A stretch of 56,625 bases of DNA from Thermotogota bacterium (lineage in GTDB: Bacteria > Bipolaricaulota > Bipolaricaulia > UBA7950 > UBA9294): assembly GCA_039679545.1 (NCBI GenBank), contig JBDKUT010000153.1, positions 1-56,625 on the forward strand. Direction: 5' to 3'. Numbering within the stretch: the first letter of the stretch is position 1; the number at the start of each line of letters is the position of its first letter. Positions 2,102 to 19,688 of this stretch are shown piece by piece. Made by a program: the position numbers and the translations under genes. The notes beneath the pieces are model-generated. The model did not search any database and was not told the DNA's origin. It saw only the letters and a program-made list of their open reading frames with translations.

Positions 2102-2183
2102 TGGAGTGATGTTCACCCAGCCGTAGTGCTTCGCTCGGGACCGGGGGCAGGTCACTCTGCCGATGACGGGCACTCCCTCCGTC

Positions 2184-3773
2184 CTACTGCTTGCGGTACT
2201 GCCACAGGTCATATGTCGTCGGGCTGGTGGCAACCAGGAGGTCGCCGATGGCGTAGATAGCGTCGGCAGCTCCGCCTATCTTGAGCCAGCGTAGCGGATA
2301 GCCCGTGTACTGGAACACGGCACTCCCGTCGATTGCCAACCCGTAGAGGTGGTCATCATCCCCGACGGCGAACATCCGCCCCGGACCTCCAATCAGCACC
2401 CAAGAGAACGGCGTGCCATTGTACTCATGCAGATTCCCAACGTCGGGGTCTCTAGCGTACAGGCTCGTCCCCGCCGCGTAGATCGCTGCTGCGGGTCCGC
2501 CAATCTGAGTCCACTGATCCGGCGCACCGTCGTACTTGTAGACGCCGCTGCCGTCTGCTGCCAGGCGGTACACCCGTCCGTCGCTACCAAAGGCGAACTG
2601 CTTTGCCGCAACGCTGATTCGAGTCCACGACGTGCCGTTGTAGGAGTAGAGGGCGCCAGTTTGAGGATTCGTAGCGTAGAGACCTCGGCCCGTTCGATCG
2701 ACGGCGCCATAGATCTCGGCTGCTGCTCCTCCCACCTTGGTCCACCCTCCCGCTGACTCTATGTACCGAAGGACCGTTGCCCCGTCCGGGGTGAGGCCGA
2801 ACAGAGATCCCATCCCGCCCACGGCGAACCGCTTCCCAGGCCCGCCGACGCGGTGCCAGGAAGTCATCCCTGTTCCAGCGAAGGCGTAGATGTCTCCCGT
2901 CGAGCGTTCCGTCGCATAGAGTTGTTCGTAGGACTCAATCGTGCTGTATCCCACGATCACGTCCCCGACGGGTCCCCAGATCTGCGCCCAGTAGCCCTTG
3001 AGGAACGTGGAGATCCACGGCCCCCTCGAGTAGGTGGGCCGGTATACGCTGGTCCCGTTGGCGTCGTCACCCCAACTCGTGACGCCGATGATCCGTCCCT
3101 GAGCGTTGATCATGGGTCCGCCGGAGTCGCCCGGGCAGGTGTACTGCGTCGGATTCCTGACCGTTATGCTCTCGGGGCCGCACTCTGTGATCGTCACGGT
3201 CGCCATCCGCTTCTCGGAGTTGCTGGCCGAGCAGTCACTACCCGTCCGGCCGAACCCAATCAGCGTCACTTGCTCCCCCGGTGTGTTGGGGACGACAAGC
3301 TCAACCGGGATGGGAGTGACGTTCAGGACTCGCTCGTTCGCCGGCACATCGAGCTTGATGATCGTGTAGTCGTCCGCCAGCCAGCGGACCTTCCCGAAGT
3401 CGGGGTGAACATAGACCGTCCCATCAATCGAAACATCCTGTCGGGTAAGTGACTCGTTGACCGACGTGGTTGGATCATCGACCGGGAAGACATCATGCAA
3501 CGTGAACGTCCGCCGCGCACCGCAGGTGCTGTGATCGGCGTCCGGGCCCTGCTGACCGCAGACACAATGGGACGCCGTGAGGACGGTCTCCTGGTCGATC
3601 AGTGTCGCGGTGCACCCGGGAATCGTGCCGACCGCCTCATACTGGCCCACGGGAACGATCGCCCCCACCGAGAGAGGGAACTGCGTAGAACCCACTTGTC
3701 CGGCTCCAGCCCATGCCGCAGCAGCCAGGACCATCACACCCAGTCTGAGTGCCAAGCCAACGGTTCGTTTCAT
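2184..3773 (-). CDS. Secreted S1 (chymotrypsin-fold) serine protease fused to tectonin-like beta-propeller repeats
   Basis: Signal peptide MKRTVGLALRL..AWA; triad motifs TASHC, DYTII, GDSGGP; repeated W-x-x-(I/V)GG-(P/A) units in the C-terminal half. Confidence 0.85.
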   Translation of the reverse strand: MKRTVGLALRLGVMVLAAAAWAGAGQVGSTQFPLSVGAIVPVGQYEAVGTIPGCTATLIDQETVLTASHCVCGQQGPDADHSTCGARRTFTLHDVFPVDDPTTSVNESLTRQDVSIDGTVYVHPDFGKVRWLADDYTIIKLDVPANERVLNVTPIPVELVVPNTPGEQVTLIGFGRTGSDCSASNSEKRMATVTITECGPESITVRNPTQYTCPGDSGGPMINAQGRIIGVTSWGDDANGTSVYRPTYSRGPWISTFLKGYWAQIWGPVGDVIVGYSTIESYEQLYATERSTGDIYAFAGTGMTSWHRVGGPGKRFAVGGMGSLFGLTPDGATVLRYIESAGGWTKVGGAAAEIYGAVDRTGRGLYATNPQTGALYSYNGTSWTRISVAAKQFAFGSDGRVYRLAADGSGVYKYDGAPDQWTQIGGPAAAIYAAGTSLYARDPDVGNLHEYNGTPFSWVLIGGPGRMFAVGDDDHLYGLAIDGSAVFQYTGYPLRWLKIGGAADAIYAIGDLLVATSPTTYDLWQYRKQ

Positions 3774-4039
3774 CGTACCCTCCATGTCTCCTACAACCCT
3801 CATCAGGCCTGCTTGGCCCAAACACTCCATCTCCAAAACCACTCTATCGCGCCTCGGACGGCGCGTGCCAACACGTGAGGACGAACTGGATCTTCGTCGT
3901 ACTTTCAGAGTCACCCGGCCGTGGTAGCACCGTTCCCTGCCCCCGCAGACCACCTGCCGCCGATCCGTCAACGCGGACGCCGCCAGCGGGCTTTCACAGG
4001 CCGGGCGAACCTGGATATCGTGGGGTCGGAGGCGAGAGC

Positions 4040-4630
4040 ATGAAGAAGATGTCGCGGCGAGTCTGCGTCGGCCTGCTGTTGGTGGGAGCGCTCATGGTCC
4101 CATCGTGGGTCGCGGTGGCTCCGCCATCCGACGCGGTTGTCACGGGAATGCTGGCGATGTGGCTGCACGGCACGGCCGTGCAAATCGAAAGCCCGGAGCG
4201 GCTCGCACAGGTCCAGCGTTTTGCCTATCACACAAGAATCGAGGGGAACCCGAACACGGGCAATTGGCTCCACTTCCCGATCACTACGCCGGTCGTCGGA
4301 ACGTACGTGGAATCCCAGAATGTCCCATTCACGGGATTCATGACGAACTACCGACGTTACCACCTCGACAAGGTGTTCGTCAGCTTCCGCAGCGGCTCCA
4401 TCGACGCTCGAGTGACCAACGTTCACATCTACGATGGCCCCAAACTGATCGCGGCCTTTAACAACCTGAATCTCTATGGGGAACAACACATGCGGGAATT
4501 CGTTCTCCCCAACTTCCCCGAAGTGGAGCAGGGGATCTGCATCTCGTTGGGCGTAGAGTTCGGATCGTCCGGACAGCGGTGGATGGAACTTCAGTCCGTC
4601 GGAGCGGACTTCTACTTCCTGGACCAGTAG
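4040..4630 (+). CDS. Exported DUF6623-like protein
   Basis: Signal peptide; motifs MWLHG..QIE.P, NWLHFPITTP, VHIYDG recalled from DUF6623. Confidence 0.6.
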   Translation: MKKMSRRVCVGLLLVGALMVPSWVAVAPPSDAVVTGMLAMWLHGTAVQIESPERLAQVQRFAYHTRIEGNPNTGNWLHFPITTPVVGTYVESQNVPFTGFMTNYRRYHLDKVFVSFRSGSIDARVTNVHIYDGPKLIAAFNNLNLYGEQHMREFVLPNFPEVEQGICISLGVEFGSSGQRWMELQSVGADFYFLDQ

Positions 4631-4924
4631 GGCACCCAATCGCATTGCTGAGCGGGGCGACCGGCGCAGGCGGAGATTGTCCGCCCTCCGGAGCCCGCTC
4701 AACTGGAAGGTTCGGTGTGCCCTACTCGACATCCTACCCACCACCGATGACTTGCCCGCGGGCAGAGATTGATCTTGAGCTTGGACTCGAACGCCGCTAA
4801 GCCGATCAAGAGGACACCGAGCCTCCGTCTCTGGGCGTGCGAAGGCTGGTCATAGCAGGGCAGGGATCCAAGACGGAGGTTCTGGATGTGGGGACGTCAG
4901 GTGTACCAGTTCGAGAGTTATCCC

Positions 4925-4984
4925 GTTGGGTCACCCGGGCGAACGATCCTCAAACCCGGTTCGAAAGTAGTCCACCAAGGGGTA
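4925..4984 (+). repeat. Dispersed ~60-bp direct repeat, copy A
   Basis: GTTGGGT...GTTCGAAAGTAGTCCAC..GGGGTA; 46/60 identical to copy B without gaps (hand count). Confidence 0.8.
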
Positions 4985-5130
4985 GTAGATGCCTTTGGCT
5001 TGCGCGGTCATGCATCCACTCGAGTTCTTCATTCAACACCCTCCTGAAGCTGGACACCCCAGTCCCACAGCCCGACGCCCCTGGAGGCGGCTTCTCGCGC
5101 CGCCCGTCGCCCTCTCCTGAGCCTTCTTTC

Positions 5131-6192
5131 CTACTCCTCTGAGAACCGGCACTCCCTGTCGAGGCGGCTTACCACGGCAGCAACAAGCTGCGCTGCGTGC
5201 TCGAGATCCTCGCCGTGGACGATCTCTGATGCAGAGTGCATTGCCCGGGTGGGGATCGAGATAAGCGCAGAGGCAACGCCTCCTCGGGATATCTGAATGG
5301 CGTTGGCATCGGTACCGTAGGGACCGGGAGCGATCTGGTACGGGATGCCCTCAGCCTCTGCAGTTTGCACGAGCAGGTTCAGCAGCCGCGGGTTGACCGT
5401 GTACCCGGCGGCAAGCATTGGGCCCTTGCCCAGAAAAGCCCGACCTACTCGCTTCCTGGCTTCACGGTCGCCAGGGGTGTCTGTCGCCCATCCCACATCC
5501 ACCGCGATGCCAACGTCAGGAGCAACCGAGTAGGCACTGGTCGTGGCTCCACGCTTGCCGACCTCTTCTTGGACGGTGGCCACGGCAAACACGGCGGCAG
5601 ACAGTTCCATCTCCGCTAGGCGGCGCATCGCCTCCACAACGACGAAGGTCCCCACCCGATTGTCGAGGCCGCTCCCCACAACCAGCCTGTCGTGGAGCAG
5701 CTCAAGCCCGCTCGAGAACACCGCGAGTCCGCCGATCTGGACGCGGCGCTTCGCCTCAGCAGCATCCGTCGCGCCGATGTCAATCCACAAGTCCGAGAAC
5801 GACACAGCGGTCTCCTGTTCCGTTGGCGAGAGAAGATGGGCTGCCTTGCGACACACGACGCCCCGAACCGGTCCATCGCTACCCAGGATGTCGACGCGTT
5901 GACCCGGCAGCCCCTGGGTATCCCATCGTCCCGCTCCGACAAAGTACAGGAACCCAGACTCGTCGATATCCGTAATCTGAAGTGCGAGCTCGTCTATGTG
6001 AGCTGCCAGCATCACTCGGGGCCGTCCCTCCTCGTTGACGCACCCAAAAGAGTTACCGTGAGAGTCTGTCCAGACTTTCTCCGCATAGGGGCGAATCTGC
6101 TCCCGCCACGCTCTTGCCGCGTCCATTTCGCGACCCGTCGGCGCAGGATGAAGCATCAACTCAGTCAACCGAACCCATGTCTGGCGATCCAT
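5131..6192 (-). CDS. M42 family metallo-aminopeptidase
   Basis: AAHIDE, LDNR, VQEEVG, VDVG, MHS metal-binding motifs. Confidence 0.9.
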   Translation of the reverse strand: MDRQTWVRLTELMLHPAPTGREMDAARAWREQIRPYAEKVWTDSHGNSFGCVNEEGRPRVMLAAHIDELALQITDIDESGFLYFVGAGRWDTQGLPGQRVDILGSDGPVRGVVCRKAAHLLSPTEQETAVSFSDLWIDIGATDAAEAKRRVQIGGLAVFSSGLELLHDRLVVGSGLDNRVGTFVVVEAMRRLAEMELSAAVFAVATVQEEVGKRGATTSAYSVAPDVGIAVDVGWATDTPGDREARKRVGRAFLGKGPMLAAGYTVNPRLLNLLVQTAEAEGIPYQIAPGPYGTDANAIQISRGGVASALISIPTRAMHSASEIVHGEDLEHAAQLVAAVVSRLDRECRFSEE

Positions 6193-6398
6193 TCGATCCT
6201 CCATTGCCTCTCGTACCCTCGCGCTCCCGGAGAACATGCCCCCCGTAAACCGCCGAGAGTGCACTATCGTTCGACCGTCCGCAGCCATCCACCAGTCTAG
6301 GCCGATAGTGCCGACCTAGCTAAAGACTATCAGAGCTCCCGACATTGCACGGGCAGCTCGCACAGAGCGCGATCCCGCTGAGGAAGACCCCCTTGGTC

Positions 6399-7262
6399 TC
6401 ACTTTCGACGGAGCCGAGGATCCAGGATGTCCCGCACCCCATCGCCCAGGAGATTGAACCCCAATACTGTGAGGAAGATCGCCAATCCTGGAAAGGTGGA
6501 GACCCACCAACTGGCAGGGAGGTAGTTTCTACCTGCCGTGACCATGACACCCCATTCTGGGGTGGGGGGCTGGGCACCGAGGCCCAGGAATCCGAGACTA
6601 GCTGCTGTCCGGATTATTCCTCCCATCTCCAAGGAGAGTTGCACGATCAGGGGCGACAGAGTCAGGGGAAGGACGTGGCAGAGCAGAATGCGAGTCTTGC
6701 TGGCTCCCATTGCTCTTGCCGCATCTACGTGAGCCTGACCGCGCAGCGCCAGGGCACTACTTCTCGCCAGACGAGCGAAGTACGTCCATTCCGTCATCGA
6801 GACTGCAAGTACGACGTTCTGCAGGCTGGGACCCAGAGCTGCCGCAAATGCCATGGCCAAGATGAGCTGTGGGAAAGACATGAAGATGTCAGTGATCCGC
6901 ATGAGAAGGCTGTCCACCTTTCCGCCGATGAACCCGCACAACACACCAATCAGCGTTCCCACTGTCCCGGAGATCACGGCGACTTGGACGGCGATCCGGA
7001 TTGAAATCCGCGCGCCATACAGGAGCCGACTCAGGACGTCTCGCCCGATCTGATCTGTGCCCAACGGATGGATCGACGTCGGCCTGCCCAACTTGGCCAG
7101 TGGATTGGTCTCGTAGGGATCGTGCGGGGCAACATACGGAGCCAAGATTGCCGTCAGAGCGAGGGCGAGGATGATTCCAAGACCGACAAGGGACAGCGGG
7201 TTCCCCTTCACGGCCCGCCAAGTGTCGCGTGCCACAGACGTTGAATGCGCTCGCCTAGTCAT
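6399..7262 (-). CDS. dppC: Peptide ABC transporter permease (DppC/OppC)
   Basis: HPLGTD..GRD, EAA-like loop DAARAMGAS, LSFLGLG-like LGFLGLG..PTPEWG. Confidence 0.92.
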   Translation of the reverse strand: MTRRAHSTSVARDTWRAVKGNPLSLVGLGIILALALTAILAPYVAPHDPYETNPLAKLGRPTSIHPLGTDQIGRDVLSRLLYGARISIRIAVQVAVISGTVGTLIGVLCGFIGGKVDSLLMRITDIFMSFPQLILAMAFAAALGPSLQNVVLAVSMTEWTYFARLARSSALALRGQAHVDAARAMGASKTRILLCHVLPLTLSPLIVQLSLEMGGIIRTAASLGFLGLGAQPPTPEWGVMVTAGRNYLPASWWVSTFPGLAIFLTVLGFNLLGDGVRDILDPRLRRK

Positions 7263-8268
7263 ATCGGACCCGCGGATCCAGGAAGGCATACAGAATGTCG
7301 ACAACCAGGTTCATCAGCGAGTAGAAAAGAGCAATCACCATGGTGGAGCCCACGACGGCTGGGAAATCGAGCGCCAGGAACGCATTCGTCGCATAACGCC
7401 CTAGTCCCGGCCATGCGAAGATCGTTTCGACAATGACTCCTCCCTCAAGGAGCCTCCCATACACGATGCCTGCGATGGTCACGACAGGCAGCATGGCATT
7501 TTTGAGAGCGTGCCGTAGCACCACTCGGTTCTCTACCAGCCCTTTTGAGCGGGCCGTCCTCACGTAGTCTTCGCCAAGCACATCCAGCATGCTGGCCCGC
7601 GTAACGCGCGATATCGCAGCGACACCGAAGAACGACAGGGTGAGTGCGGGCATTACGAAGTGTTTGAGAGCTATCGTGAACATGTCCAGTCGCCGAGCGA
7701 TGAGGCTGTCGATGAGAATCATGCCGGTGATGCGGGTAGGCGGGTCCATGTAGTATGGGAGTCGTCCTCCCCCTGGCAGCCAGCCAAGAATGAAGTAGAA
7801 GAGCAGCATCATGAGCAGGGCAAGCCAGAAGACTGGCATTGAAATCCCTGTAAGAGCGGCGACCCGGGCTACATGGTCCGCCAGCTTTCCTCTTCGCACA
7901 GCCGACACCACACCGAGGACGATGCCCCCCACCACACTGATTAGCGCGCCCACGGTTGCCAGCTCGAGAGTTGCAGGGAAGTACTCGACCAGATCCTGAA
8001 GAACGTGCCTCCCACTGGCCATCGAGACTCCGAAGTCACCGTGCAATAGCTGCCACACGTAGGCCAGGTATTGCTCAATGACAGGTTTGTCGAGGCCCCA
8101 CTTTGCCCTCATCTCTTCGACGAGATCGGCCGGCGCATGGCCCCCCAGCATCGCCGCGACGGGATCGGCGGGGATGACCCGGGAGATGAAGAACACAAGC
8201 GTCATGACTCCGAACACAACGAACAGAAGCCACAACAGGCGGCGCACGATGTACGTCACCATGGACAT
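7255..8268 (-). CDS. dppB: Peptide ABC transporter permease (DppB/OppB)
   Basis: FPATLEL, EDYVRTARSKGL, ETIFAWPGLG, LDPR terminus. Confidence 0.92.
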   Translation of the reverse strand: MSMVTYIVRRLLWLLFVVFGVMTLVFFISRVIPADPVAAMLGGHAPADLVEEMRAKWGLDKPVIEQYLAYVWQLLHGDFGVSMASGRHVLQDLVEYFPATLELATVGALISVVGGIVLGVVSAVRRGKLADHVARVAALTGISMPVFWLALLMMLLFYFILGWLPGGGRLPYYMDPPTRITGMILIDSLIARRLDMFTIALKHFVMPALTLSFFGVAAISRVTRASMLDVLGEDYVRTARSKGLVENRVVLRHALKNAMLPVVTIAGIVYGRLLEGGVIVETIFAWPGLGRYATNAFLALDFPAVVGSTMVIALFYSLMNLVVDILYAFLDPRVRYD

Positions 8269-8335
8269 GCAGAGGGACTCCGCCCTGACCACGCCCCCCT
8301 ACGGGCGTCCAGAAGCGGAGTCCCCCCTCCCCCTC

Positions 8336-9928
8336 TCACTGTGTCTTCGAGACACCACGGAGTTCGGTGTACGGCCACATCGCGGGGATCTCAAGCCCCA
8401 CGACGGTTTCCCTCGTTGCCACCTGCGTTAGTGTGTTATGCAGCATCACGAACGGTCCCTCTTCCAGCACCAGCGCCTGGATGGCCTTGTAGAGCACCTC
8501 GCGGCGGCGCGGGTCCTGCTCGGCGGCAGCTTCCTCTACCCAATCTGCCAGTCCGCTGGGGCAGTACATACATCGCCACGCCATCTGCTTGACTTCCGCG
8601 TCATCTCCCAGAACACGGCAGTGCGCCATCATCGTCGCCGCTCCGCTGGGATCGGCGTAGTCGAGACTTCCCCTGGCCAGAAGAAGCTGGTGCGTCCGCG
8701 CTCTGAAGACCTTGAGCACCTCTGCCCAGACCATGGTCGTGATCTTGACCCTGATGTTGATCTTCTTCAGATCCTGTTGGATCTGCGCGGCAATGTCCGT
8801 GAACGGCTGGTCGGTTCTTGTGATCAGCTCTACGTCGAACCCGCCTGCGTACCCGGCCTTGGCCATGAGCTCTCTTGCCTTGTCGAGGTTCTGCGCGTAG
8901 GAGAGGTCAAGGTGGGAGAACATGCCGACAGGTACGATCGACTGGTTCTTCACGGCCGAGCCAGCCATGATTCCGTCGGTGATTGCGTTGTAGTCCAAGG
9001 CCCATCTGATTGCCTGTCTAACCTCGATGTGGCTCAGGGGCTCACAGCCGAAGTTCATGGCGAGGTAGTGGTAGCTGAACGAGGAGCTGGACTCTACAAC
9101 GCGGATGCCTTCCTTGCTCCGAAGCTCCACGATCATCTCAGGCAGAAGGTTCCACGCTACATCGATGTCGCCTCTCTCGAGGGCAAGCTTCTGCGCGGTC
9201 GGTTCGGGGAGGTCCTTGATGATGATGCGACGGAGCTGCGGCGCCCCCTGCCAGTAGTCGTCAAACGCTGTAAGCACTATCCTGTCGCGTTTGACCCACT
9301 CCGCAATCGTGAATGGGCCACTTCCCGCATCATGCTCGGCTACCCACTTGGCCGCAAGGGGATCATCGCCCGTGGCGTGCTCTTGGATCACCGCTGGGTC
9401 AAGAACACAGCCGATTCCTTGATAGCCGAACGCGGCAGCGAAGAGCATCTCGCCAATCGGCGCCTTGGTGGTGATGGACACCGTGTAGTCGTCAACTCGC
9501 TGGATCATGTCCTTCGTAGGTACGAATTGCTCCATGATCCAGATCGGCGCCTGGTGTCTGTCAAGGGCCCTCTGGAAAGAGAAGACAACTGCATCGGCGT
9601 TGACCTCGTTCCCAGAGTGGAACCTGACACCCTGTCTAACGTGGAACGTCCAAGTCAAACCATCTTCTGAGACCTCCCAGGACTCGGCCAGTCCGGGCTT
9701 GACCTCCTTGAACGCATCCTCTCCGCCGGTGAAGTTGACTAATTGATCATAGACCTGCTCCAAGATAAACATGTCTTCGAGCTCGTAGACGCGCTCGGGG
9801 GCAAAGTCGATGATAGGATCATGGTTCATCCCGATGACCAGCGTGTCCGCTGGGATCTGACCGAGCACCGGCATGACAACCACCACAGATACGACAAGCA
9901 ACACGGCAAGCAGCATACGCAGCTTCAC
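8336..9928 (-). CDS. dppA: Peptide ABC transporter substrate-binding protein (family 5)
   Basis: Signal peptide; PGLAESWEVSEDGLTWTF, GSGPF, VRQAI motifs. Confidence 0.92.
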   Translation of the reverse strand: MKLRMLLAVLLVVSVVVVMPVLGQIPADTLVIGMNHDPIIDFAPERVYELEDMFILEQVYDQLVNFTGGEDAFKEVKPGLAESWEVSEDGLTWTFHVRQGVRFHSGNEVNADAVVFSFQRALDRHQAPIWIMEQFVPTKDMIQRVDDYTVSITTKAPIGEMLFAAAFGYQGIGCVLDPAVIQEHATGDDPLAAKWVAEHDAGSGPFTIAEWVKRDRIVLTAFDDYWQGAPQLRRIIIKDLPEPTAQKLALERGDIDVAWNLLPEMIVELRSKEGIRVVESSSSFSYHYLAMNFGCEPLSHIEVRQAIRWALDYNAITDGIMAGSAVKNQSIVPVGMFSHLDLSYAQNLDKARELMAKAGYAGGFDVELITRTDQPFTDIAAQIQQDLKKINIRVKITTMVWAEVLKVFRARTHQLLLARGSLDYADPSGAATMMAHCRVLGDDAEVKQMAWRCMYCPSGLADWVEEAAAEQDPRRREVLYKAIQALVLEEGPFVMLHNTLTQVATRETVVGLEIPAMWPYTELRGVSKTQ

Positions 9929-10063
9929 TGCAGGCACCTCCCGTCTCGCGCTTTGTGTTCTTCACGCACTTCCGCCGGCCTCCTGAAAACGCTTGGGGCT
10001 CACCTCCCTCGTGTCTCACGCGTTTACCATCGCACGTCTCGGTCCGGAGCCGAGGGCGGGGCG

Positions 10064-10092
10064 ATTATACACTCCGTGTAACTCCTGGACAA
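10064..10092 (-). promoter_or_regulatory. sigma70 promoter of the dpp/M42 operon
   Basis: TTGTCC (10092-10087), 17-nt spacer, TATAAT (10069-10064). Confidence 0.65.
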
Positions 10093-10220
10093 GCAGTCCA
10101 CAGCCGAGAGTGCATACCTCCGCGTGTGAATTGCGCCAGCTCCTGGTACTAGACCTGTGGATTGCGCACGGAATTGCACTACCATCACTTGCCCGGCATG
10201 AGGGGCGCTGCCCACCGCGC

Positions 10221-10249
10221 TTGACAGATTGGCATCGATGTCCAATACT
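10221..10249 (+). promoter_or_regulatory. sigma70-like promoter of the patB operon
   Basis: TTGACA 10221-10226, 17-nt spacer, AATACT 10244-10249. Confidence 0.5.
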
Positions 10250-10432
10250 TGGATGCATGGTCTACGAACGAAGGGAGCTTCTCCTCTCGGGGTACGGATG
10301 CGGTGGTGGACTGCACAGCGGGTTCGGCGGGGAGCTGTCCTTCCATCCCGTCCCCGCCGAAGAGAGTTGAGCGACGCCCGACGTCTGGGGAGAAGCTCTC
10401 ACAGTCTATGTCTGAGGTTCGAAGTGAGGGAT

Positions 10433-11596
10433 ATGGCGAGCATGAGCGATGCATTCCGGCGGGGTGTCGACAGGCTTTCCTCCGACAGCAAGAAGTGGCA
10501 CCTGAATCCTCCCGATGTCCTCCCTTTGGGATTGGCCGATATGGACTTCCCTTCTTCGGACGCCGTGATTCAGGCACTTGTGTCTCGCGCGAGACATGGG
10601 GTTCTTGGGTATCCGACGGACCCTTCGGAGCTCCGCGATGTGATCGTCGATCGCATGCGCACGCGCTACTCCTGGCAGATCTCACGCGCCGACATCCTCT
10701 TCCTGCCATGCATTGATGTCGGCCTAAGCCTGGCTTGCCACGGCATGTCCTCCAGAAGGCGGACTCTCGTCATCTGCCCTCCCGTCTACCACAGCATACG
10801 AGATCTGCCGGGAGAAACCGGCATGGAGGCAATCGAAGTCCCTCTGTTGCACGATCGGTCCGAGCAGTACGCGCTGGATATGCCCCGCCTTGGTGAGGCA
10901 CTCGCTCATGGCCCGGCCATTCTGGTGCTGTGCAACCCTCACAATCCTGTGGGCAGGGTCTTCACGGTGGACGAGCTCGAGGACTTGGCGCGTCTCTGTT
11001 TGGCGAATGACGTACTCGTGTGCTCGGACGAGATCCACTGCGATCTTGTCTTTGACGGAAGACGCCACGTTCCCCTTGCCGCACTGGAGCCAGAGCTCGC
11101 CGCGCGGATGGTTACCCTGATGTCGCCGAGCAAAGGCTTTAACCTATCTGGTCTGCGTTTTGGCTTCGCCATCGTTCAGGACCCTGACCTCCGTCGGCAG
11201 GTGCAAGAGGCCCACCGGGGACTTGTCGCCGGAGGCAATGTCATGGGCTACGCAGCTGCTCTCGCGGCCTACCGTGACTCCGATGAGTGGCTAGTGGCAG
11301 CGCTCTCCACCCTGGAAAGAAACCGTGATGCTCTGTCTGAGTACGTCCGAAACGAGCTCCGGCCCATGACCATGTGCCCCGTAGAAGGTACCTACCTCGC
11401 GTGGCTGGACTGCCGTAGGATCAGCGTTCCTGGGAACGCGCACGCCTTCTTTCTGAATCAAGCGAGGGTGGCCCTGAGCAACGGTGCTGACTTCGGACCA
11501 GGAGGAGATGGCTTCGTTCGCCTAAATTTCGCCTGCACGCCGGACACGTTGGAGCTCGCGCTGGGCAGGATGAAGGAGGCACTTGCGCGCACTTGA
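10433..11596 (+). CDS. MalY/PatB family PLP-dependent beta C-S lyase
   Basis: ADMDF, LCNPHNPVG, SDEIHCD, SPSKGFNL (PLP Lys), EGTYLAWLD, FVRLNFAC. Confidence 0.92.
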   Translation: MASMSDAFRRGVDRLSSDSKKWHLNPPDVLPLGLADMDFPSSDAVIQALVSRARHGVLGYPTDPSELRDVIVDRMRTRYSWQISRADILFLPCIDVGLSLACHGMSSRRRTLVICPPVYHSIRDLPGETGMEAIEVPLLHDRSEQYALDMPRLGEALAHGPAILVLCNPHNPVGRVFTVDELEDLARLCLANDVLVCSDEIHCDLVFDGRRHVPLAALEPELAARMVTLMSPSKGFNLSGLRFGFAIVQDPDLRRQVQEAHRGLVAGGNVMGYAAALAAYRDSDEWLVAALSTLERNRDALSEYVRNELRPMTMCPVEGTYLAWLDCRRISVPGNAHAFFLNQARVALSNGADFGPGGDGFVRLNFACTPDTLELALGRMKEALART

Positions 11597-11771
11597 TGCG
11601 GCGCGGAAGGAATGCGTGCCGATCACGAAGGGAGGTGGCTTCCCGTTCAACGGCAAGTAGAGTGGGACAGAGAGCCCATCAAGGCAGGCAGGGTCCCTGT
11701 TTGCGATGCTCCTTGGGAGGGTCGAGGAAGGCGTTGGGCAGATACTTGGTAGCCCGTGAGGGAGGTAACTT

Positions 11772-11999
11772 ATGCCACATGTCATCGTCAAGATGTTCCC
11801 TGGAAGAAGCGAGGACAAGAAGAAGCAGTTGGCCGCTGCCATTGCAAGAGACGTCGCTAGCATCGCGGGGTGCAGCGAAGCGGTCGTATCCGTAGCCATT
11901 GAGGAGATCGCACAAGAGAGGTGGGATGAAGAGGTCTATGGGCCCGACATCCTCGGTCGGAAGAAGTCCCTGTACAAGGAACCGAGATCGAAGGCCTAG
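11772..11999 (+). CDS. 4-oxalocrotonate tautomerase family protein (PptA-like)
   Basis: GGAGGT RBS; catalytic Pro1 (MPHVIVK..GRSEDKK); 75 aa. Confidence 0.88.
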   Translation: MPHVIVKMFPGRSEDKKKQLAAAIARDVASIAGCSEAVVSVAIEEIAQERWDEEVYGPDILGRKKSLYKEPRSKA

Positions 12000-12141
12000 A
12001 TACATCGATACGCGGGCGCAAGGGGATAGAAGGCGAATACTCCATCGAGATCCCGAAGAGCACTGCACTTGGAGGGCCGAGGAAGGCAGTCCCTTGCTCA
12101 TCGAGTGCCTGGGCGCTCCGATGGTCGTACGAGGGGGCAGA

Positions 12142-12825
12142 ATGGCGCGATCTCAGATGACGAAAGTGGAACCCCAATGGGTCCGAATGCTCAAGGGCCT
12201 GCTCCCAGGTCTCCGAGAAGTGCTAGGGAAGGACTCGGAGGTGGTGCTGCATGACCTGACGCATCCCGAGGACTCCGTCGTTGCGATCGAAGGAGATCTC
12301 ACGCACCGCAAGGTGGGCGCGCCGGCAACCGACCTCCTGCTGCACCTGCTGCGGGAGGGGGCTGCCGCGACGGACGTAGTCAACTACGAGACGCGGTCTG
12401 CGGAGGGAATCATCCTACGCTCATCGACTTTGCTGCTGCGAGATGAAGGCAACCTTCCCGTCGCCTCTTTGTGCATCAACATCGACACCAAGGTTCGAGA
12501 CATCTCCGATGAGAGAATCCGGGAAGCTGCAAAGGCGGATGTGCTCCGCCGAGGAGGTGGCTCGGTACGCGAGGTCTTCAGCCAGAATGTGGAAGAGACG
12601 TTGCGCAATCTGGTGGAGGAGGCCTTGCAGGCCGTTGGCGCCTCTCGCTATGGGGTCAACAAGGAGCAGCGGCTGGAGATCGTTCGCCTTCTGGATGAGA
12701 GAGGGGCCTTCATGGTCAGAGGAGCCGCCGACTATGTTGCGAAGCAGCTGAAGATGTCGCGAGCTAGCCTCTACAACTACCGAAAGACGCTGGAGGGGAA
12801 GGGCTCTTCTCCAAGGGAACAGTGA
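12142..12825 (+). CDS. YheO/DauR-family regulator (PAS_6 + HTH_22)
   Basis: EVVLHDL..SVVAI..RKVGAP.TD, LRSST, LCINID, LDERGAF..VAKQL.MSRASLYNY. Confidence 0.9.
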   Translation: MARSQMTKVEPQWVRMLKGLLPGLREVLGKDSEVVLHDLTHPEDSVVAIEGDLTHRKVGAPATDLLLHLLREGAAATDVVNYETRSAEGIILRSSTLLLRDEGNLPVASLCINIDTKVRDISDERIREAAKADVLRRGGGSVREVFSQNVEETLRNLVEEALQAVGASRYGVNKEQRLEIVRLLDERGAFMVRGAADYVAKQLKMSRASLYNYRKTLEGKGSSPREQ

Positions 12826-12858
12826 TCCGCGAGTCACAACATCAGGAGATGGTCCAAC

Positions 12859-13686
12859 ATGTACGGCCTTCCTGAGTGCAGCGACACCCTGCGTCGTGAG
12901 CTTGCTTTGTCGAGCTCTCCGATTGCGGTGTCGCTTATCCGAAACGGGGCCGAGCTCCCGGCAGGTCTCAGAAGACCCAGAGCAGATCACGGAACCTGCC
13001 TGGCCCAATGCCAGGCGTTCGGGCTCGCCAGAAGGAATCGAATGGGGCTGGCGCTGCTGAAACAAGACATGTGGTGTCCTGAACCCGTCATCGGATACGG
13101 CTTGTCGGCGCCTCCGCAGGAGTTCAGCGAAGGCGCCAATCGTTTCCCCGACGACATCGCGACTTCCGAGGCGGCGCGAACGTGGGCTCAGAGTTTCCCA
13201 AGGCTGGGACCCGGGGAGTACGCTGGAGTGCTGTCGGCACCCCTTGATGCGGCTCCGTTTGACCCTCAGCTGATCCTGATCTACTGCCGCTCAATCCAGA
13301 TCACTCGCCTGTTGTTGGCAAGCTCGTACGATGACGGGCGAGAGCCCACCTGCCATCTCTCCGGGCACGCAGGGTGTGTCTTCGCGGTCGTGCCTCCCCT
13401 GAAAACCGGAGAGTGCGCGGTGTCGATTCCGTGCATGGGGGATCGGCAGTACGCTGGCTGTCAGGATGACGAGCTACTGTTCACGATTCCCGCACCCCGC
13501 CTTGGTGGCATCCTGCGAGCTCTAGCGAGACCAGGCACGGGTTCGGTTCCCAGCAAGATCTTCGTCCGCTCCGAATACACCCTACTGGAAGCATACGCAA
13601 GACTCGCCAGCAAGATGGAGATGACCCATGCAGACGGGTCACCCATCATCGGGAAGCGCGGATCTGAGCGTCTTCCGTGGGAATGA
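12859..13686 (+). CDS. DUF169 domain protein
   Basis: CQAFGLAR, MWCP, APL..F.P, C...C.GDR..G..DDEL pattern. Confidence 0.8.
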   Translation: MYGLPECSDTLRRELALSSSPIAVSLIRNGAELPAGLRRPRADHGTCLAQCQAFGLARRNRMGLALLKQDMWCPEPVIGYGLSAPPQEFSEGANRFPDDIATSEAARTWAQSFPRLGPGEYAGVLSAPLDAAPFDPQLILIYCRSIQITRLLLASSYDDGREPTCHLSGHAGCVFAVVPPLKTGECAVSIPCMGDRQYAGCQDDELLFTIPAPRLGGILRALARPGTGSVPSKIFVRSEYTLLEAYARLASKMEMTHADGSPIIGKRGSERLPWE

Positions 13687-13764
13687 TCGCCGTGGACTTC
13701 GGAGATGCGACTCCACGATATCGCCATCGCGTCCGAGTGGCACGGAAATGCGGACGGAGCGAGA

Positions 13765-14736
13765 ATGGAGATAGGGTTGAACTTCTTCGACGCACACTGT
13801 GACACGGCCACTGGAGTGATGGCGGGGGCCCTTGACTTCCGTCGTGCGGACGGAGGAGGACAAGTGAACCTCCCTGCGCTGGGGATGTGGCGAAGCTGGA
13901 CCCAGGTCTTCGCGTGCTTTGTGCCAAGCAACCTGCATCCCGCAACGGAGAGGGCTACCGCAGAGAAGATGATCCACACCCTTCGGCGGCTGGCTGCAGA
14001 GAGTCGCATGACCGTTGTCTTGAAGAGCTCGGACCTCCCAGAAGGCGGGAGCAGCGGCCTCGCGGCCATCATATCGCTTGAGGCCGGAGATCCTCTCGAA
14101 GGAGACCCACAGAATCTCGAGCACTTCTTTGCTCTCGGCGTTCGGAGTCTCATCCCGGCATGGCACGACAACTGCTTTTCAGGAACGGCGACGGGTGAAA
14201 ACAAACCCCTCTCGCGAGCCGGCGAAGATCTGGTGCGCCTCGCGGAGGGATTGGGCGTCATGATCGACGTGTCGCATCTGTCTGATGCGGCCTTCTACTC
14301 GGTTCGCCGCGTGGCAAAGCGCCCGTTCATAGCCAGTCACTCCAACTGCCGTGTCCTCTGCCCATCTCTGCGGAACCTGACGGATGACATGATCGTTGCC
14401 CTAGCGGAGCAGGGAGGTGTCACAGGCGTCAACCTGTACTCCAAGTTCCTTGATCCGTCTTGCGGAAGGCAGCATCAAGGCGCCGCGGCTTCCAGAGCGG
14501 ATATCGCCTGGGTCGCTCGGCATGTGCGGCACGCCATCGAAGTCGGCGGCGAGGATTGCGTCGGGCTGGGTGGCGACTTGGACAGCGGCGGATCCCTCGC
14601 GGAGGGCATTGAGACGGTCAGAGACTATGGGGTGATTGTGGACGCCTTGGCCCACGCAGGTCTTTCGTCACGCCAGATCGAGAAAGTGTGCCACATAAAC
14701 TTCAGGCGTGTCTTTCGCGAAGTCCTTCCTACCTAG
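13765..14736 (+). CDS. Membrane dipeptidase (peptidase M19)
   Basis: DAHCD, SLE, IDVSHLS, ASHSN, RNLTD, GLGGDLD; start could be 13705. Confidence 0.88.
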   Translation: MEIGLNFFDAHCDTATGVMAGALDFRRADGGGQVNLPALGMWRSWTQVFACFVPSNLHPATERATAEKMIHTLRRLAAESRMTVVLKSSDLPEGGSSGLAAIISLEAGDPLEGDPQNLEHFFALGVRSLIPAWHDNCFSGTATGENKPLSRAGEDLVRLAEGLGVMIDVSHLSDAAFYSVRRVAKRPFIASHSNCRVLCPSLRNLTDDMIVALAEQGGVTGVNLYSKFLDPSCGRQHQGAAASRADIAWVARHVRHAIEVGGEDCVGLGGDLDSGGSLAEGIETVRDYGVIVDALAHAGLSSRQIEKVCHINFRRVFREVLPT

Positions 14737-14749
14737 GAGGTGCGTAGCA

Positions 14750-15454
14750 TTGGCCGAAAGAAGAGGAGACCCGAGTTGCGCAGATTGTCCCTCACGCGCG
14801 TGCGAACGGCGCGCATCCACGTCGGAGCAAGAACTGTCCACTGCTCAACCGACGCCTGAGTTCTGCCCAATGAGATGCATGCCCGACGTGTTTCGGAGTG
14901 CTCTGGTGGAATATGACAAGCCCAATGTTCGTGAGTTCGCACGCAAAGCTGCTGTACAGGAGTTCGAATGCTACGAGCGCACAGCTAACGGGATGCGTCC
15001 GAGGCTTCCTCGCGTCGAGGAGTTGGTGGAATTCGCCAAAAAGTGCAGCTACGAGAAGCTCGGCATTGCCCATTGCACGGGACTCATGACGGAGGCCAGG
15101 ATCTTGAAGGGGATACTGCAGAAGAAGGGGTTTCGGGTTGTGACCGTGCAGTGCAAAACGGGAGCAGTCCCGAAGGAACGCATAGGTGTCCGGCCGGACC
15201 AGAAGATCGTCGGAGCAGGAAGCTGGGAGAGCATGTGCAATCCCATTGCGCAAGCCATGATCCTGAACACAGCTAAGGTCGACCTCGCGATCATGCTCGG
15301 CCTGTGCATAGGCCACGATACTTTGTTCATCAAGCACTGCGAGGTTCCCTTGACGGTGCTGGCAGTGAAAGACAGGGTGCTGGGGCATAACCCGCTTGCC
15401 GCGCTCTACCTCTCGAGCAGCTACTACCACCATCTTGACGGCCCGTCCGCCTGA
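14750..15454 (+). CDS. DUF1847 domain, Cys-rich putative metal-binding protein
   Basis: AGGAGGT RBS then TTG; RVEE..EFA, CK.G, CNPIAQA..LN, GLCIGHD..F, KDRVLGHNP. Confidence 0.85.
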   Translation: MAERRGDPSCADCPSRACERRASTSEQELSTAQPTPEFCPMRCMPDVFRSALVEYDKPNVREFARKAAVQEFECYERTANGMRPRLPRVEELVEFAKKCSYEKLGIAHCTGLMTEARILKGILQKKGFRVVTVQCKTGAVPKERIGVRPDQKIVGAGSWESMCNPIAQAMILNTAKVDLAIMLGLCIGHDTLFIKHCEVPLTVLAVKDRVLGHNPLAALYLSSSYYHHLDGPSA

Positions 15455-15709
15455 CAGGGCGCGCGAACACCGCCTGCACGGAGGATACGCGGGTACTTCT
15501 GTCTCCCGCGCGAAACGTGCCAGCGTCGCCAATATACTGCGGCAGCCCGGCGAAGCCCGCTCAGCAACGCAACGTTCGCGGTTCTTGGGCTCCCATCCCG
15601 TCCGAAGGAGTCCGAAGCTCGTCCACGACGGGACCGAGCACCCGGCCGAAGCCGCCACTTCTCGGTCACCCGAGCGAGCACACCGGAGATCCCGCTCGGA
15701 AGCGGTTTC

Positions 15710-15769
15710 GTTGGGTTACATGAGAAGGCGATCTTCGAACCCCGTTCGAAAGTAGTCCACTTGGGGGTA
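15710..15769 (+). repeat. Dispersed ~60-bp direct repeat, copy B
   Basis: Shares the exact 17-mer GTTCGAAAGTAGTCCAC with copy A; dyad TTCGAAC-CCC-GTTCGAA. Confidence 0.8.
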
Positions 15770-15967
15770 TGAGCGCGGGAGTATCCCTATTCGTGTGTTG
15801 TCCACGTCCGATTCTTCTACACGGGCTCGAATGGTAGGCTCGGTTACCTGGTGGGATCCGAATCGAGCAAGGATGGACCCAAGCTGTGGACCGCTGCTCG
15901 AGACCAGGTCGGGCAGGTCGGGAACTCGCCAAGGCTGCTGCCCCACCTGGAAAACCCAACCGCCCGG

Positions 15968-17041
15968 CTACGGAGTCGTGCTCTTCAGGAAACCTTCCGG
16001 CCAGATGCTGCCCGGATAGACGGGGCAAAGGCCTGTCTCGCGGTTCGCACCTCTCTCGCCTGGGCTGGGAACAACATTTTCGGCCCCCTTAACCCAGCCC
16101 TTGAACGGAGCGCTGGGGGCGAACGTACCGGTGCAGTTGGGAGTCGAGGCGCGAATTCCGGCCCCCGCGTTCTCTCGGATCCTACAACCGTAGAACTCGA
16201 CGATGCCGTCCTTCTCAAGGAGGACGCCGTCGTCACCGTTCGCGCGGATCTCGCATCCGCTCAGGACACCGCGACCGGAGTCGGTGAACCAGAGGCCCAG
16301 CCCCCCGTTCTTCGCTACGACGCAGTCCAAGAGGTCGAGCAGTGCACCGTTCTGCGCCACGAGACCGTTGAGCACGTTCCCGATGATCGTGATTCGCGTG
16401 GCGTGAACGCGGACTCCATCCCACGCCCATATGCCCATGAGATTGCCATCGACGGCACAATCCGTGAGCCTGAGCTCCGAGATGTGGAATGCGAGGATTC
16501 CGTGCGTCTTGTTCCGCGAGATCTCGCAGTTGCGCAGATCACCTCGCGTGAAGTCCCATGTGTAGATCCCGTGCGTGCCGTTCTCCACGATCCGGCAGTG
16601 ATCGAGGGAGAGAGAAGTGCGGTCGCGGCTCCAGATTCCACACCATGAGTTCTTCGCCACGGTGACGAAGGCAAGTTCAACGGTGGGGGCTCCCTCGGTC
16701 TGGATTCCGTGCCCTTCCCAGCCTTTCCCGCCCTGGACCGTCAAGCTCTCCAGCCGGACGGCGATTCCATTCCCGAGAATGTGTATCGCCGCACCTGTTT
16801 TGGTCCCGTCGATCACTGTCGACTCGCCAACCCCTCGCAGGGTCAGAGAGTGGTCGATCACGAGCGAGCCACGGTATGTTCCTGCCTCCAACTCGAGGAC
16901 GGCGCCCGGTGGTGCCGTGTCGATGGCATCTTGGAGGGAACCGCCCGGCGGGACAACGACGGGAGCTCCAAAGGCAACGGCACACGCTGCGATGACTGCA
17001 AGAACCGCCCCACCCAGCATCCCCCGTAGCTTCCTATCCAT
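15968..17041 (-). CDS. Secreted right-handed parallel beta-helix repeat protein
   Basis: Signal peptide; SLQDAID.A.PG..L.L.AGTY; ~23-aa repeats C.I..N...GI. Confidence 0.85.
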   Translation of the reverse strand: MDRKLRGMLGGAVLAVIAACAVAFGAPVVVPPGGSLQDAIDTAPPGAVLELEAGTYRGSLVIDHSLTLRGVGESTVIDGTKTGAAIHILGNGIAVRLESLTVQGGKGWEGHGIQTEGAPTVELAFVTVAKNSWCGIWSRDRTSLSLDHCRIVENGTHGIYTWDFTRGDLRNCEISRNKTHGILAFHISELRLTDCAVDGNLMGIWAWDGVRVHATRITIIGNVLNGLVAQNGALLDLLDCVVAKNGGLGLWFTDSGRGVLSGCEIRANGDDGVLLEKDGIVEFYGCRIRENAGAGIRASTPNCTGTFAPSAPFKGWVKGAENVVPSPGERGANRETGLCPVYPGSIWPEGFLKSTTP

Positions 17042-17368
17042 CGTCGCCTCCTCACTGCACATGGTAGAGATCGTGAGCGTACGGCGGTGACGCAAACTCG
17101 TCCCCGACCCGTTACCTCTCCGAGGACCGCCCGCTTCACGGCCCACCTTAGTCCACCTCTGGCAACAGCGTCAAGGCGCCGATGCCGCCTGCCTTGGCCT
17201 TGGCTGCTCAGCGACTCGGAGGAACCCTCTCAGAATCGGCTTGCGTTCCGTTCTCAGCAACCGGTGCAACGATCTCAAGACCAACGAGGGGACGGCCCAA
17301 CACCGGTCCTCGCGGGGAGCTGCCGGCGAACGTCTCCCTGAAGTGACGGGGAGTCCGGGAGCAGTCCT

Positions 17369-17425
17369 GTTGGGTCGCACAGGCGAGGATTCTCGAACCC
17401 AGTTCGAAGCAAGTCCCCAGGGGTA
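17369..17425 (+). repeat. Dispersed direct repeat, copy C (more diverged)
   Basis: GTTGGGT..GAT.CTCGAACCCAGTTCGAAG.AAGTCC..GGGGTA. Confidence 0.65.
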
Positions 17426-17507
17426 CCAGATCCGAAGACAAAGCCCTTCGGCTAAACGACCGAAGGGCCTCCCGGCGGCGAAGGCGTCGTCGCGCCTGTT
17501 CCGCGCC

Positions 17508-18098
17508 TCACTCCACCGCGACGTGGAAGAACGTCCGCAGAGGTGCCCAGATCTCCCCCATTCCGAGACCGAACGTGCCTGCCGTCGTGTACGTGTGATA
17601 CGAGAGCCCTGTCCCGGTCTCGCTGTCCACGGTCACGTGATCGGTGCTCTGATCTCCCCACGACACGGAGTAGTCGATCCCGAAGCGTCCCCAGTACCGG
17701 ACCGTGACTCTACGGCCTTCGACTGTTGCGAGGGCAAGGTGGCAGTCGACTCGTTCGATGTGCACGGACTCGTCCGCGACCACACCGCCCTCGCCATCGA
17801 CCAAGGTGATCTCGTAGTTTCTGGGAACCTGCGACCCGGAGCTTCCCCCGTCCACGGCTTGGTAGAAGTGCTCGTAGAGTTCGACCGGCAGCGCTACGTC
17901 AGACACGCCGTACGATGTGTCAACGTCGCCCCATCGCACCGTGTAGCCGGACCCCGTGACGCCGGTCACTCTCACCTGTACCCAGCCCTGATCTTCGCTC
18001 ACGATCTCGAGCTCCACGTCCGCCGGCGGAATGACGACCGGAGCGGTGCACCCCGCCAACAGCAGCAGCAAAAGGATAACTCCCACAGCCTTGGCCAT
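17508..18098 (-). CDS. Lipoprotein with PKD-like domains
   Basis: GGAGG RBS; lipobox LAGC; two WGD motifs; HTYTTAGTF. Confidence 0.75.
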   Translation of the reverse strand: MAKAVGVILLLLLLAGCTAPVVIPPADVELEIVSEDQGWVQVRVTGVTGSGYTVRWGDVDTSYGVSDVALPVELYEHFYQAVDGGSSGSQVPRNYEITLVDGEGGVVADESVHIERVDCHLALATVEGRRVTVRYWGRFGIDYSVSWGDQSTDHVTVDSETGTGLSYHTYTTAGTFGLGMGEIWAPLRTFFHVAVE

Positions 18099-18487
18099 AT
18101 CTCCCTCCTGCGCATACCCACGCGGCACGCTCACCGGATGCTCTCCCCAAGCGAACAGGTCGACGAATCCGCCTACGGATCCGCTCCCGCGCCATCGAGA
18201 CCGCCGCAGGCAATTCCTAGCGGGTTCTCCCTGCCACCAAGGTAACACCGATCAGCGAAGCAAGGCAACGCGACGTCTTCCGGGCACTGTCTCTGGGTGT
18301 CGGCCGCTGGAGAGGCCGTGAAATCCGCGTCTCGGCCAATCTTCGGAGACTCTCAGTCCCCCCCAACCAATGCCCGGCTCGCACGGCAAGCGTTCCAAGG
18401 CACGGCCGGAGATGTCATTTCCCCACGCCGCTTTGCTGTTCCAAAAGGGAGTCTGCCACGCGAAGGCGCTTCCGTTTGGGAAGGCCG

Positions 18488-18880
18488 CTACGGCGCACGG
18501 TCGAGGGGGATCGCCGAGGAACCCTTCTCGCTGTGCAGGGCACCGAAGTCGTCGTTCGTACGCTGGTAGGCAACGAGGACCTTGTACTCGCTCCCGCAGA
18601 CCAGCGGCTTGTCCGTCGGGTCGCGCGAGTCGAGGGGGATGACGAACTCGAAGTAGGTCTTGCCCTCCACTTCCCGCGCCGCGGCCTCGAGACAGCCAAA
18701 CGCGCGTAGAGCACCCATGCTGTCTCCTCCCGTGAACGTGCTGACTTCGCCGATCGCTCTCTGTACCCGGAGTCCGTGCTTGCCGGACGACGTCGTGGGC
18801 TCCAGAGGGCTCGAGGTCGGCCACACGTACGTCAGCCTCTTCCTCCACCCGACACAGACCCACCGATGATGCCATTGTAC
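18488..18880 (-). pseudogene. Remnant of a DOMON-domain protein
   Basis: C-terminal EGKTYFEFVIPLDS.D..DKPL..G..YKVLVAY...DDF..H.. is intact; upstream similarity lies in another frame and no credible start or RBS is present. Confidence 0.5.
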
Positions 18881-18943
18881 GGTGACACCCGTCGGAGACT
18901 TCGCCTTCTGAGACGAGATCAGGAGGCCGCGGATCCTCGGAGG

Positions 18944-19408
18944 CTACACCGACGCCCATCCATTCAGGATCCTGATCACCCGACCGGCTTCTTCATAGAG
19001 GAAGTCCGGCGGCAGCGGATGGCCCGCGCGGCTTGTCTTCCGCCACAGGTAGGCGGAGAAGCCACCGTTCCTCCATTCCACGACGTCCGCCGTCGTAAGG
19101 TGCATGGCCTCGATCGCCGCCGACTGCTCCGCAGTAAGCACGGCTCGGATCGAGGCGATCATGCCCGACATGTCCGGCGGCGTGTCAGGCGGGACCTGCA
19201 ACTCCGCACGCCAGACCTCCACAAGCGGCACCAGCTGCCGCGCCTGTACGGCGGACACGGCAGTCTCCGACCCCGAGAGCCTGACGATTCCGTACAAGAG
19301 AACGGCAAGCTCGTCCGTGCTCGTACTCGCCGTAACACCCAGCCCGACCAGCAATGCAAGGCACAGCCCTGCGGCGACGGACTTACATCCACGTCTTGAC
19401 CCAATCAC
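18944..19408 (-). CDS. Hypothetical exported protein
   Basis: GGAGG RBS, GTG start, signal peptide-like N-terminus. Confidence 0.6.
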   Translation of the reverse strand: MIGSRRGCKSVAAGLCLALLVGLGVTASTSTDELAVLLYGIVRLSGSETAVSAVQARQLVPLVEVWRAELQVPPDTPPDMSGMIASIRAVLTAEQSAAIEAMHLTTADVVEWRNGGFSAYLWRKTSRAGHPLPPDFLYEEAGRVIRILNGWASV

Positions 19409-19688
19409 GCTACCCTCCTCAACCGCGTGGATTGCCTCGTCCCATCCACGGAACGTGGCGTCTTCTTGTTTGTACCTACACAGCATCCGACTTCAATGTG
19501 TCACGACAGCAGCAGGTCCGTGACGGGGCTGTACGTCGTTGGGTCCATCGTTCTTGTGCGTCTACCCGACGTCCTCGAGACGGCCTTCGACGCGGCTCGT
19601 CAGGTTCGGGCGGCTCTGCAGGTGCTCGACCCTGACGTCCGCTCTGGCACAACCGGCCCGCCGGTCGCGCCGCTTCGCCGACCGTTTC

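Follow-up and report, generated by a model that had tools for sequence, protein, structure and literature searches.

What process left three similar repeats, all in the same orientation, at the gene-module boundaries of contig JBDKUT010000153.1 from a Thermotogota bacterium (assembly GCA_039679545.1; Bipolaricaulota in the GTDB lineage)? The whole stretch of 56,625 nucleotides analysed here is referred to as the window. The initial annotation placed the repeats on the plus strand, between genes, at 4925-4984 (A), 15710-15769 (B) and 17369-17425 (C), which is correct, and saw in them att-like ends from repeated cassette-like insertions. Our analysis supports this view and adds the recombinase family, that of the large serine recombinases (LSRs), and the target, the 3' ends of tRNA genes. 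A, B and C are very probably stacked att scars of serine-recombinase elements that insert at tRNA ends. Each unit is made up of three copies of one 17-bp arm, GTTCGAAAGTAGTCCAC, the final copy being named M. The units and a neighbouring arm of another type are given below; scores are from a position weight matrix (PWM) trained on relatives.

4906-4984, plus strand: unit A; CCA, arms at 4909-4925 and 4939-4955 (inverted), M at 4959-4975; core GGGG-TA; attR-type junction; PWM score 42.2, the best in the genome.
15691-15769, plus strand: unit B; arms at 15694-15710 and 15724-15740 (inverted), M at 15744-15760; core GGGGG-TA; PWM score 39.7.
17353-17425, plus strand: unit C, the most decayed, its final arm 2 bp short; core GGGG-TA.
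4879-4905, plus strand: decayed arm of a second type, Q, at the left edge of unit A; it mirrors the tip of an LSR gene of another subfamily; tRNA-like core GGTG-TA; PWM score 33.5, the second best in the genome.

A and B are identical at 46 of 60 positions without gaps, whereas the best 60-nt pairs in five Markov-shuffled 22-kb controls reached 36-38. The GTTGGGT starts, the TCRAAC-N3-GTTCGA dyad and the sharp loss of similarity past GGGGTA were all found as described. The repeat is thus real, but its length had been set too short: the unit measures about 80 bp and extends about 20 bp further to the left (A versus B, 59/85). It runs in the order CCA, 17-bp arm, 13-bp spacer, inverted arm, 3 bp, final arm M, 7 bp, TA. 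The GTTGGGT start is present but only separates the first arm from the second, and its sequence varies in the units of relatives; the dyad consists of two arms back to back. Weak similarity had also been reported upstream of A and B. Upstream of A it corresponds to Q; upstream of B it was not recovered, apart from a weak arm-like 17-mer at 15610. Every unit closes with the 17-bp arm and, in a fixed register to it, the terminal bases of a tRNA, and the core of unit B, GGGGGTA, is identical to the end of tRNA-Arg(CCT) in relatives. Unit C matched a model of the unit with an E value of 2.7e-15, although C itself seeded that model. An Rfam scan of positions 1-22000 of the window placed no family over the units, and single-strand folding of the units revealed nothing unusual (z from -0.4 to +1.0).

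We searched for the arm in the source genome (2.35 Mb, 163 contigs) and in a comparison set of 184 genomes of the phylum. With the PWM, the arm gave six matches of at least 14 bits genome-wide, against one in the reversed control, with A and B on top, and Q gave two. The genome-wide scatter expected of a repeat indifferent to module boundaries was therefore not seen. C was missed by the PWM because its last arm is 2 bp short. The search for further copies that had been proposed yielded a fourth unit on contig C120 (E 8e-6), while contigs C8 and C5 returned single arms. The following sites, outside the window, have no cognate tRNA nearby:

C120:24086-24148, C5:13317-13385, C5:25067 and C87:2486-2508, minus strand: further units or arms in the source genome.

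The C120 unit lies 7 kb behind a tRNA-Val gene and its core is not Val-like. A possible additional site at 21280 of the window was dismissed (E 18). Allowing one mismatch, M occurs in 36 of the 184 genomes, including 32 of the 73 others of the same family (63 matches, against 5 for the reversed pattern); the Q/tip pattern is present in 20 of 74 family genomes. An exact 26-nt pattern, too strict for the purpose, retrieved two records from 185,579 genomes, both from Bipolaricaulota. Three-arm units of 80 bp were detected among the fetched loci in 15 other genomes (13, of which five seeded the model, plus two from a later scan), often in tandem and once directly after a tRNA-Arg 3' fragment. Shorter att-only units, also in tandem and measuring 58, 62 and 29 bp, consist of two arms joined by a 10-12-bp linker or of a single arm; they were observed at L093:11100-11250, L241:7170-7260 and L084:6480-6570, respectively.

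The register between arm and tRNA core links these repeats to tRNA genes. The 7 nt at offset 19 from the arm start were an exact tRNA 3' core in 19 of 52 distinct sites, and a core with at most one mismatch in 34 of 52; these sites come from fetched loci of related genomes and their counts are not independent. At 15 other offsets there was at most one exact match and at most four with one mismatch, and random 7-mers gave 0.5% and 9%, respectively. Exact matches involved the cores of Arg, Asn, Gln and Ile tRNAs, and those of Ala tRNAs matched with one mismatch. The core starts 19 nt from GTTC in the arms but 14 nt from the T-loop GTTC in the tRNAs, so that the motif shared with the T-loop sits 5 bp further from the centre in the arm. 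Counted from a GT centre, which is preferred to TA from symmetry only, GTTCGAAAG of the arm occupies positions 16-24 and GTTCGAATC of the tRNA positions 11-19. According to the relevant part of a study of serine integrases, the motif read by their zinc domain lies at half-site positions 16-24 in attP and 11-19 in attB (PMC3783163). The 5-bp shift between arm and tRNA fits this attP/attB rule.

In relatives, LSR genes were found adjoining arm sites. The three enzymes tested (G032:C66, the arm-fused G126:C31 and the one on contig C8 of the source genome) all possess the Resolvase, Recombinase and Zn-ribbon domains. At 25 of 38 LSR loci, not counting two non-tRNA pattern matches (G054 and G154), the 3' end of the gene carries a clean antisense tRNA or tmRNA 3' end, against a background of 3%; the LSR genes of relatives lie on the strand opposite to the tRNA. 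One further locus of the 38, G126:C31, ends on core plus arm M. In G140, G108 and G159:C100 the LSR gene ends in tRNA-Arg(GCG) itself, and this is probably also the case in G150:C7, as judged from an antisense reading at a contig end. In G126:C31, G018:C60 and G175:C9, the arm and the tip of an LSR gene are physically joined. Three forms of junction therefore exist: attL (the 25 loci), the attP-type junction of arm plus tip (G126, G018:C60 and G175) and the attR type (C8). The reading frame in which the arm is crossed differs between two LSR subfamilies, and the arm is therefore probably conserved as DNA rather than as peptide.

The initial annotation had also suggested that the repeats might be decayed tips of a recombinase gene. 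In spirit this holds, but not in place or strand. A tblastn search of 16 LSRs against the genome returned no match at A, B or C, including the plus-strand peptides RWVT..RFESSP on which the suggestion was based. The candidate remnant lies instead to the right of C:

17426-17467, minus strand: putative decayed 3' tip of an LSR gene, reading PF..LAEG...WYP where intact LSRs read KPFDLVAEG...WYP.

A DNA motif with the exact spacing of this tip, designed from these very sequences after the window tip had been seen, produced 14 matches in the 184 genomes and none in the reversed control. In eight of the 14 cases a tRNA-type 3' end precedes the motif, and each of these eight resembles an LSR end in tblastn; an M-type arm precedes four others, and the last two are C and its counterpart in G001. 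Neither a protein hidden Markov model (HMM) nor a DNA HMM of 12 LSR tips detected the tip after C, and the intact tip on contig C8 scored only E 0.05. Moderate evidence from sequence comparison thus suggests that 17426-17467 may be an LSR tip, which would make C an attP-type junction of arm plus LSR tip. A VTSG reading upstream of C was dismissed as a passing likeness.

Upstream of the repeats lies a tRNA-Arg(GCG) gene that the initial annotation did not mention. The features of the locus are as follows:

1760-1833, plus strand: tRNA-Arg(GCG) (ARAGORN, Rfam), the putative anchor and target of the stack.
1673-1759, plus strand: tRNA-Ser(CGA) (ARAGORN, Rfam), directly upstream of tRNA-Arg(GCG).
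1932-1958 and 2073-2099, plus strand: two displaced 27-nt copies of the tRNA-Arg 3' end, found by repeat search, with hairpin units between.
2184-4630: cargo of module 1, a trypsin/tectonin protease gene (minus strand) and a DUF6623 gene (plus strand).
5131-15454: cargo of module 2, namely an M42 peptidase, oligopeptide ABC permeases and binding protein, an aminotransferase, a YheO regulator, DUF169, an M19 dipeptidase and DUF1847.
15968-17146, minus strand: cargo of module 3, a right-handed beta-helix protein.

The distance from the tRNA to the downstream csp gene is 19.9 kb in the window but 1.2, 1.5, 3.1 and 3.6 kb in four relatives, the four of 20 fetched loci that had both tRNA-Arg(GCG) and the csp gene. 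This difference indicates that A, B and C lie within an accessory insert anchored at the tRNA. The GC content is about 58-65% up to 26 kb of the window versus 62-72% beyond. The two 27-nt fragments (1932 and 2073) represent older junctions, which differ from those of A, B and C in being of the full-fragment type. Hairpin-rich units of about 125-140 bp with a conserved motif are found at 1834-2100, 3' of the tRNA-Arg gene and of each displaced fragment. Units homologous to these stand behind Arg tRNAs in G001, G003, G032 and G064. In two genera they occur after Arg(CCG), Arg(CCT) and Arg(GCG) genes, and they are likewise found behind M sites within arrays. Further along the window, a PKD and beta-propeller repeat protein with internal DNA repeats (families D1 and D2) is encoded at 19689-21218. 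A second variable module, a glycyl radical enzyme with its activase (22281-26289), lies between csp and a MATE gene; it is present in G064 and, by DNA similarity, in G005, and gave no match at the locus in G147, G032 and G179.

The locus varies among congeners. The alignment of G001 to the window starts exactly at 17426, the first base past the core of C, and in G001 other cargo and an M site lie upstream of this point. G005 carries a decayed unit at the orthologous place of C with another gene upstream, and G064 an arm at that place with other cargo. In a phage search, all relatives found were below 60% identity and none covered 80%.

Contig C8 of the source genome (G000:C8:33187-46935, L234) provides an array of the same kind with its enzyme. 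An intact LSR gene lies at a tRNA-Asn gene, and the same arm with an Asn core is found 11.3 kb further on. The 9-bp Asn core recurs four times in the 14 kb behind the LSR gene (0.24 expected); two of these cores follow a variant arm and one follows M. Among the contigs of four public runs compared with this locus, one from sequencing run X4, of another study, passes directly from the tRNA-Asn end into the first internal core; the 9,146-bp LSR module is missing from it, and 11 letters are shared at the joint. Such an allele would be expected from precise gain and loss of the LSR module, with the recombinase-less units remaining in place. Low cover over the LSR module in runs X3 and X4 was not counted as evidence. 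At L234:14821 and 14827, all four runs have T where the assembly has A, a possible assembly error.

These observations suggest the following course of events. The enzyme would bind the tRNA T-loop GTTCGAATC (half-site positions 11-19) as the zinc-domain motif of attB and GTTCGAAAG of the arm (positions 16-24) as that of attP. Integration of attP into attB would then proceed with cleavage where the acceptor stem ends (GT/TA); CCA would come from the arriving element, and the C-terminus of its recombinase would overlap the site. Each new arrival would push older units outward. Excision between attL and either a near or a far attR would let the LSR module carry off or drop recombinase-less neighbours, and stacks lacking an enzyme may exist because of such accretion. 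The modules of the window are probably old and fixed.

Several observations weigh against this interpretation. The window holds no LSR gene, as judged by tblastn of 16 LSRs; the sole LSR or resolvase-domain gene of the assembly is the one at tRNA-Asn on contig C8, and its nearest arms are of the variant type. The cores GGGGTA are of the Arg-CCT type but the anchor ends in GGGCGTA, so that use across isoacceptors must be assumed. No cognate tRNA on the same strand lies near the sites on contigs C5, C87 and C120, nor near those of G001 and G003, which face a tRNA-Ala gene. Within the intact LSR islands of G032 and G150, tandem 80-bp units (L011:9970-10110 and L095:2990-3090) have an inverted orientation relative to the tRNA; they could be inversion substrates or spare sites. 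No alignment breakpoint of a relative was found at A or B, and the homologues of the peptide and beta-helix genes scanned elsewhere were not flanked by arms. A search of the contigs of four runs over positions 1000-20500 for skip joints, the check proposed for A and B, gave no A-B, B-C or A-C joint; contigs bridge B (three runs) and C (one run) unchanged, although the runs covering the locus best may include the source sample. A precise empty-site allele was found once, for the tRNA-Asn module, in addition to the breakpoint at C in G001; none was found for A or B. The X4 joint is a single contig of depth 3.2, with 20 letters on its short side and at another locus. A contig of run X1 linking an A-like unit to 2024-like sequence, with unknown letters between, was rejected as probably another copy. 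As a side observation, ARAGORN found no tRNA-Arg(CCT), Arg(CCG), Gln(TTG) or tmRNA in the assembly; these genes were probably lost at contig breaks beside such arrays.

It may be asked whether the units are live rather than relics, that is, integron-like boundaries of recombinase-less cassettes which, like the att-only units of 29, 58, 62 and 80 bp, would be moved in trans by an LSR. This proposal extends the interpretation as scars of tRNA-end elements and is not an alternative to it, the chemistry being the same; we regard it as unlikely. It is consistent with the 80-bp units of the 15 other genomes, with the X4 allele, which keeps its cassettes without the LSR, and with the array on G064:C14 (L079, 1-16400), which holds 10 arm sites in 16 kb in a genome without a PF07508 match. 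Several sites of that array share a right end of about 130 bp, also present in G001, and a terminator-type left end. Tandem cassettes of the staphylococcal cassette chromosome (SCC) are mobilised likewise, according to the sections concerned of PMC11470126. Conversely, A, B and C are at least 23% diverged and the last arm of C is 2 bp short, no excision joints were found in the four runs, and no second array was found to carry the same cargo. Moreover, circles of 58-80 bp would be implausibly small. The wider form of the proposal is equally tentative: in Bipolaricaulota, LSRs that read the T-loop would collect genes in an integron-like manner. A single arm would suffice for many tRNA targets, and shuffling in trans would involve both cassettes that lack a recombinase but have dedicated ends and att-only units of 29-80 bp; the spare attP-like dyad of the 80-bp unit could then allow excision or inversion without a directionality factor. 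As an observation in its own right, the sites on G064:C14 each bound 0.2-4 kb (a metal transporter, TolB-like and transglutaminase-like genes, by eye), which makes it the most integron-like array seen.

That a tyrosine recombinase, either an island or an integron integrase, made the junctions, the link to LSRs being coincidental, appears very improbable. tRNA genes are the classic targets of tyrosine integrases, as the relevant part of PMC4383910 recalls; full tRNA fragments of that type, 27 nt long, are present at 1932 and 2073, and a Xer-like tyrosine recombinase gene lies inside the 9.1-kb LSR module on contig C8. Against this, A, B and C keep six or seven tRNA bases and no displaced fragment, LSR ends are physically joined to the arm, and the geometry fits the 5-bp shift of serine integrases. 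The tests for an integron failed as well: no IntI scored above the cut-off (TIGR02249), the order of an attC site was not found, since GTTGGGT precedes AAC and varies in relatives, and there was no hairpin (z from -0.4 to +1.0).

The least probable reading, that the repeats are operators of a transcription regulator or repetitive extragenic palindromic (REP)-like repeats, draws on their intergenic position and on a perfect or near-perfect TCGAAC-N3-GTTCGA dyad, which resembles a LexA-type box. It is largely refuted by the register test, since it leaves the in-register tRNA core unexplained; in addition, the dyad results from two arms standing back to back and many sites lack it, the arm and Q matches are as few as given above, and the only Y1 transposase-family gene lies on another contig.

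We therefore retain the interpretation of A, B and C as scars of tRNA-end LSR elements and compared it with known systems. The ssrA islands of Dehalococcoides, which carry the LSR DsiB, are described in the relevant sections of PMC3146451 as tandem islands behind one RNA gene, with an LSR gene on the reverse strand whose 3' end overlaps attL, as it does here in relatives and on contig C8, and with an extra conserved motif beside the direct repeat. In that description 15 islands lack an integration module and accretion is proposed; recombinase-less tandem units are found here too. The ssrA islands differ in their tmRNA target, T-loop insertion, 20-bp repeat and six-gene module with DsiA, whereas here there are several tRNA targets, a 6-10-nt core at the end of the acceptor stem, no DsiA-like partner in the genome, and short three-arm units. 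In SCC and the enterococcal cassette chromosome (ECC), multiple att sites are likewise stacked at one locus, and cassettes without their own recombinase have been shown experimentally to be excised singly or linked by the Ccr LSRs (parts of PMC11470126 and PMC6222049). There the target is rlmH and the enzymes are CcrAB or CcrC; here single LSRs whose C-terminus spans the site would use tRNA 3' ends. The arrays thus work like the ssrA islands and SCC/ECC but belong to neither, since the target differs. The att sites of phage-type serine integrases (A118 and LI), as far as described in the part of PMC3783163 concerned, have a 9-bp distal motif at the positions matched by arm versus T-loop; here there is no phage context, the B' side is unconserved and sites are stacked. 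In tyrosine-integrase tDNA islands and tycheposons, repeated integration at one tRNA displaces earlier elements outward, with relics remaining (relevant parts of PMC4383910 and bioRxiv 10.1101/2020.12.28.424599); those relics are partial tRNAs, whereas A, B and C hold six or seven tRNA bases. An LSR is reported for 27 of 937 Prochlorococcus elements in the latter source.

The relevant passage of the 2015 Islander paper states that serine integrases were not known to target tRNA genes (PMC4383910). The main text of a large LSR survey has no occurrence of the word "tRNA" (PMC10083194), and the passages concerned of PMC12424338 and PMC12884075 do not address LSR targeting of tRNA ends. In the open-access literature searched we found no description of this arm/LSR family in Bipolaricaulota or of LSRs that read the T-loop; the TIGER tables may list such islands. 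The principle is known, that of gene-collecting islands of LSR elements stacked at an RNA gene, and what is seen here is most likely a variant aimed at tRNA ends in uncultured Bipolaricaulota.

The scars themselves are relics, and the family behind them matters more. Its LSRs appear to use tRNA ends routinely, with predictable attP and attB sequences, which makes the target rule directly testable, and integrases that restore the tRNA end would serve as portable tools for insertion. Programs for finding islands will overlook such arrays if they require a long tRNA fragment or an integrase within the island. For the organism, stacking of LSR elements at tRNA ends would explain how a peptide-fermenting lineage gains clusters for peptide uptake.

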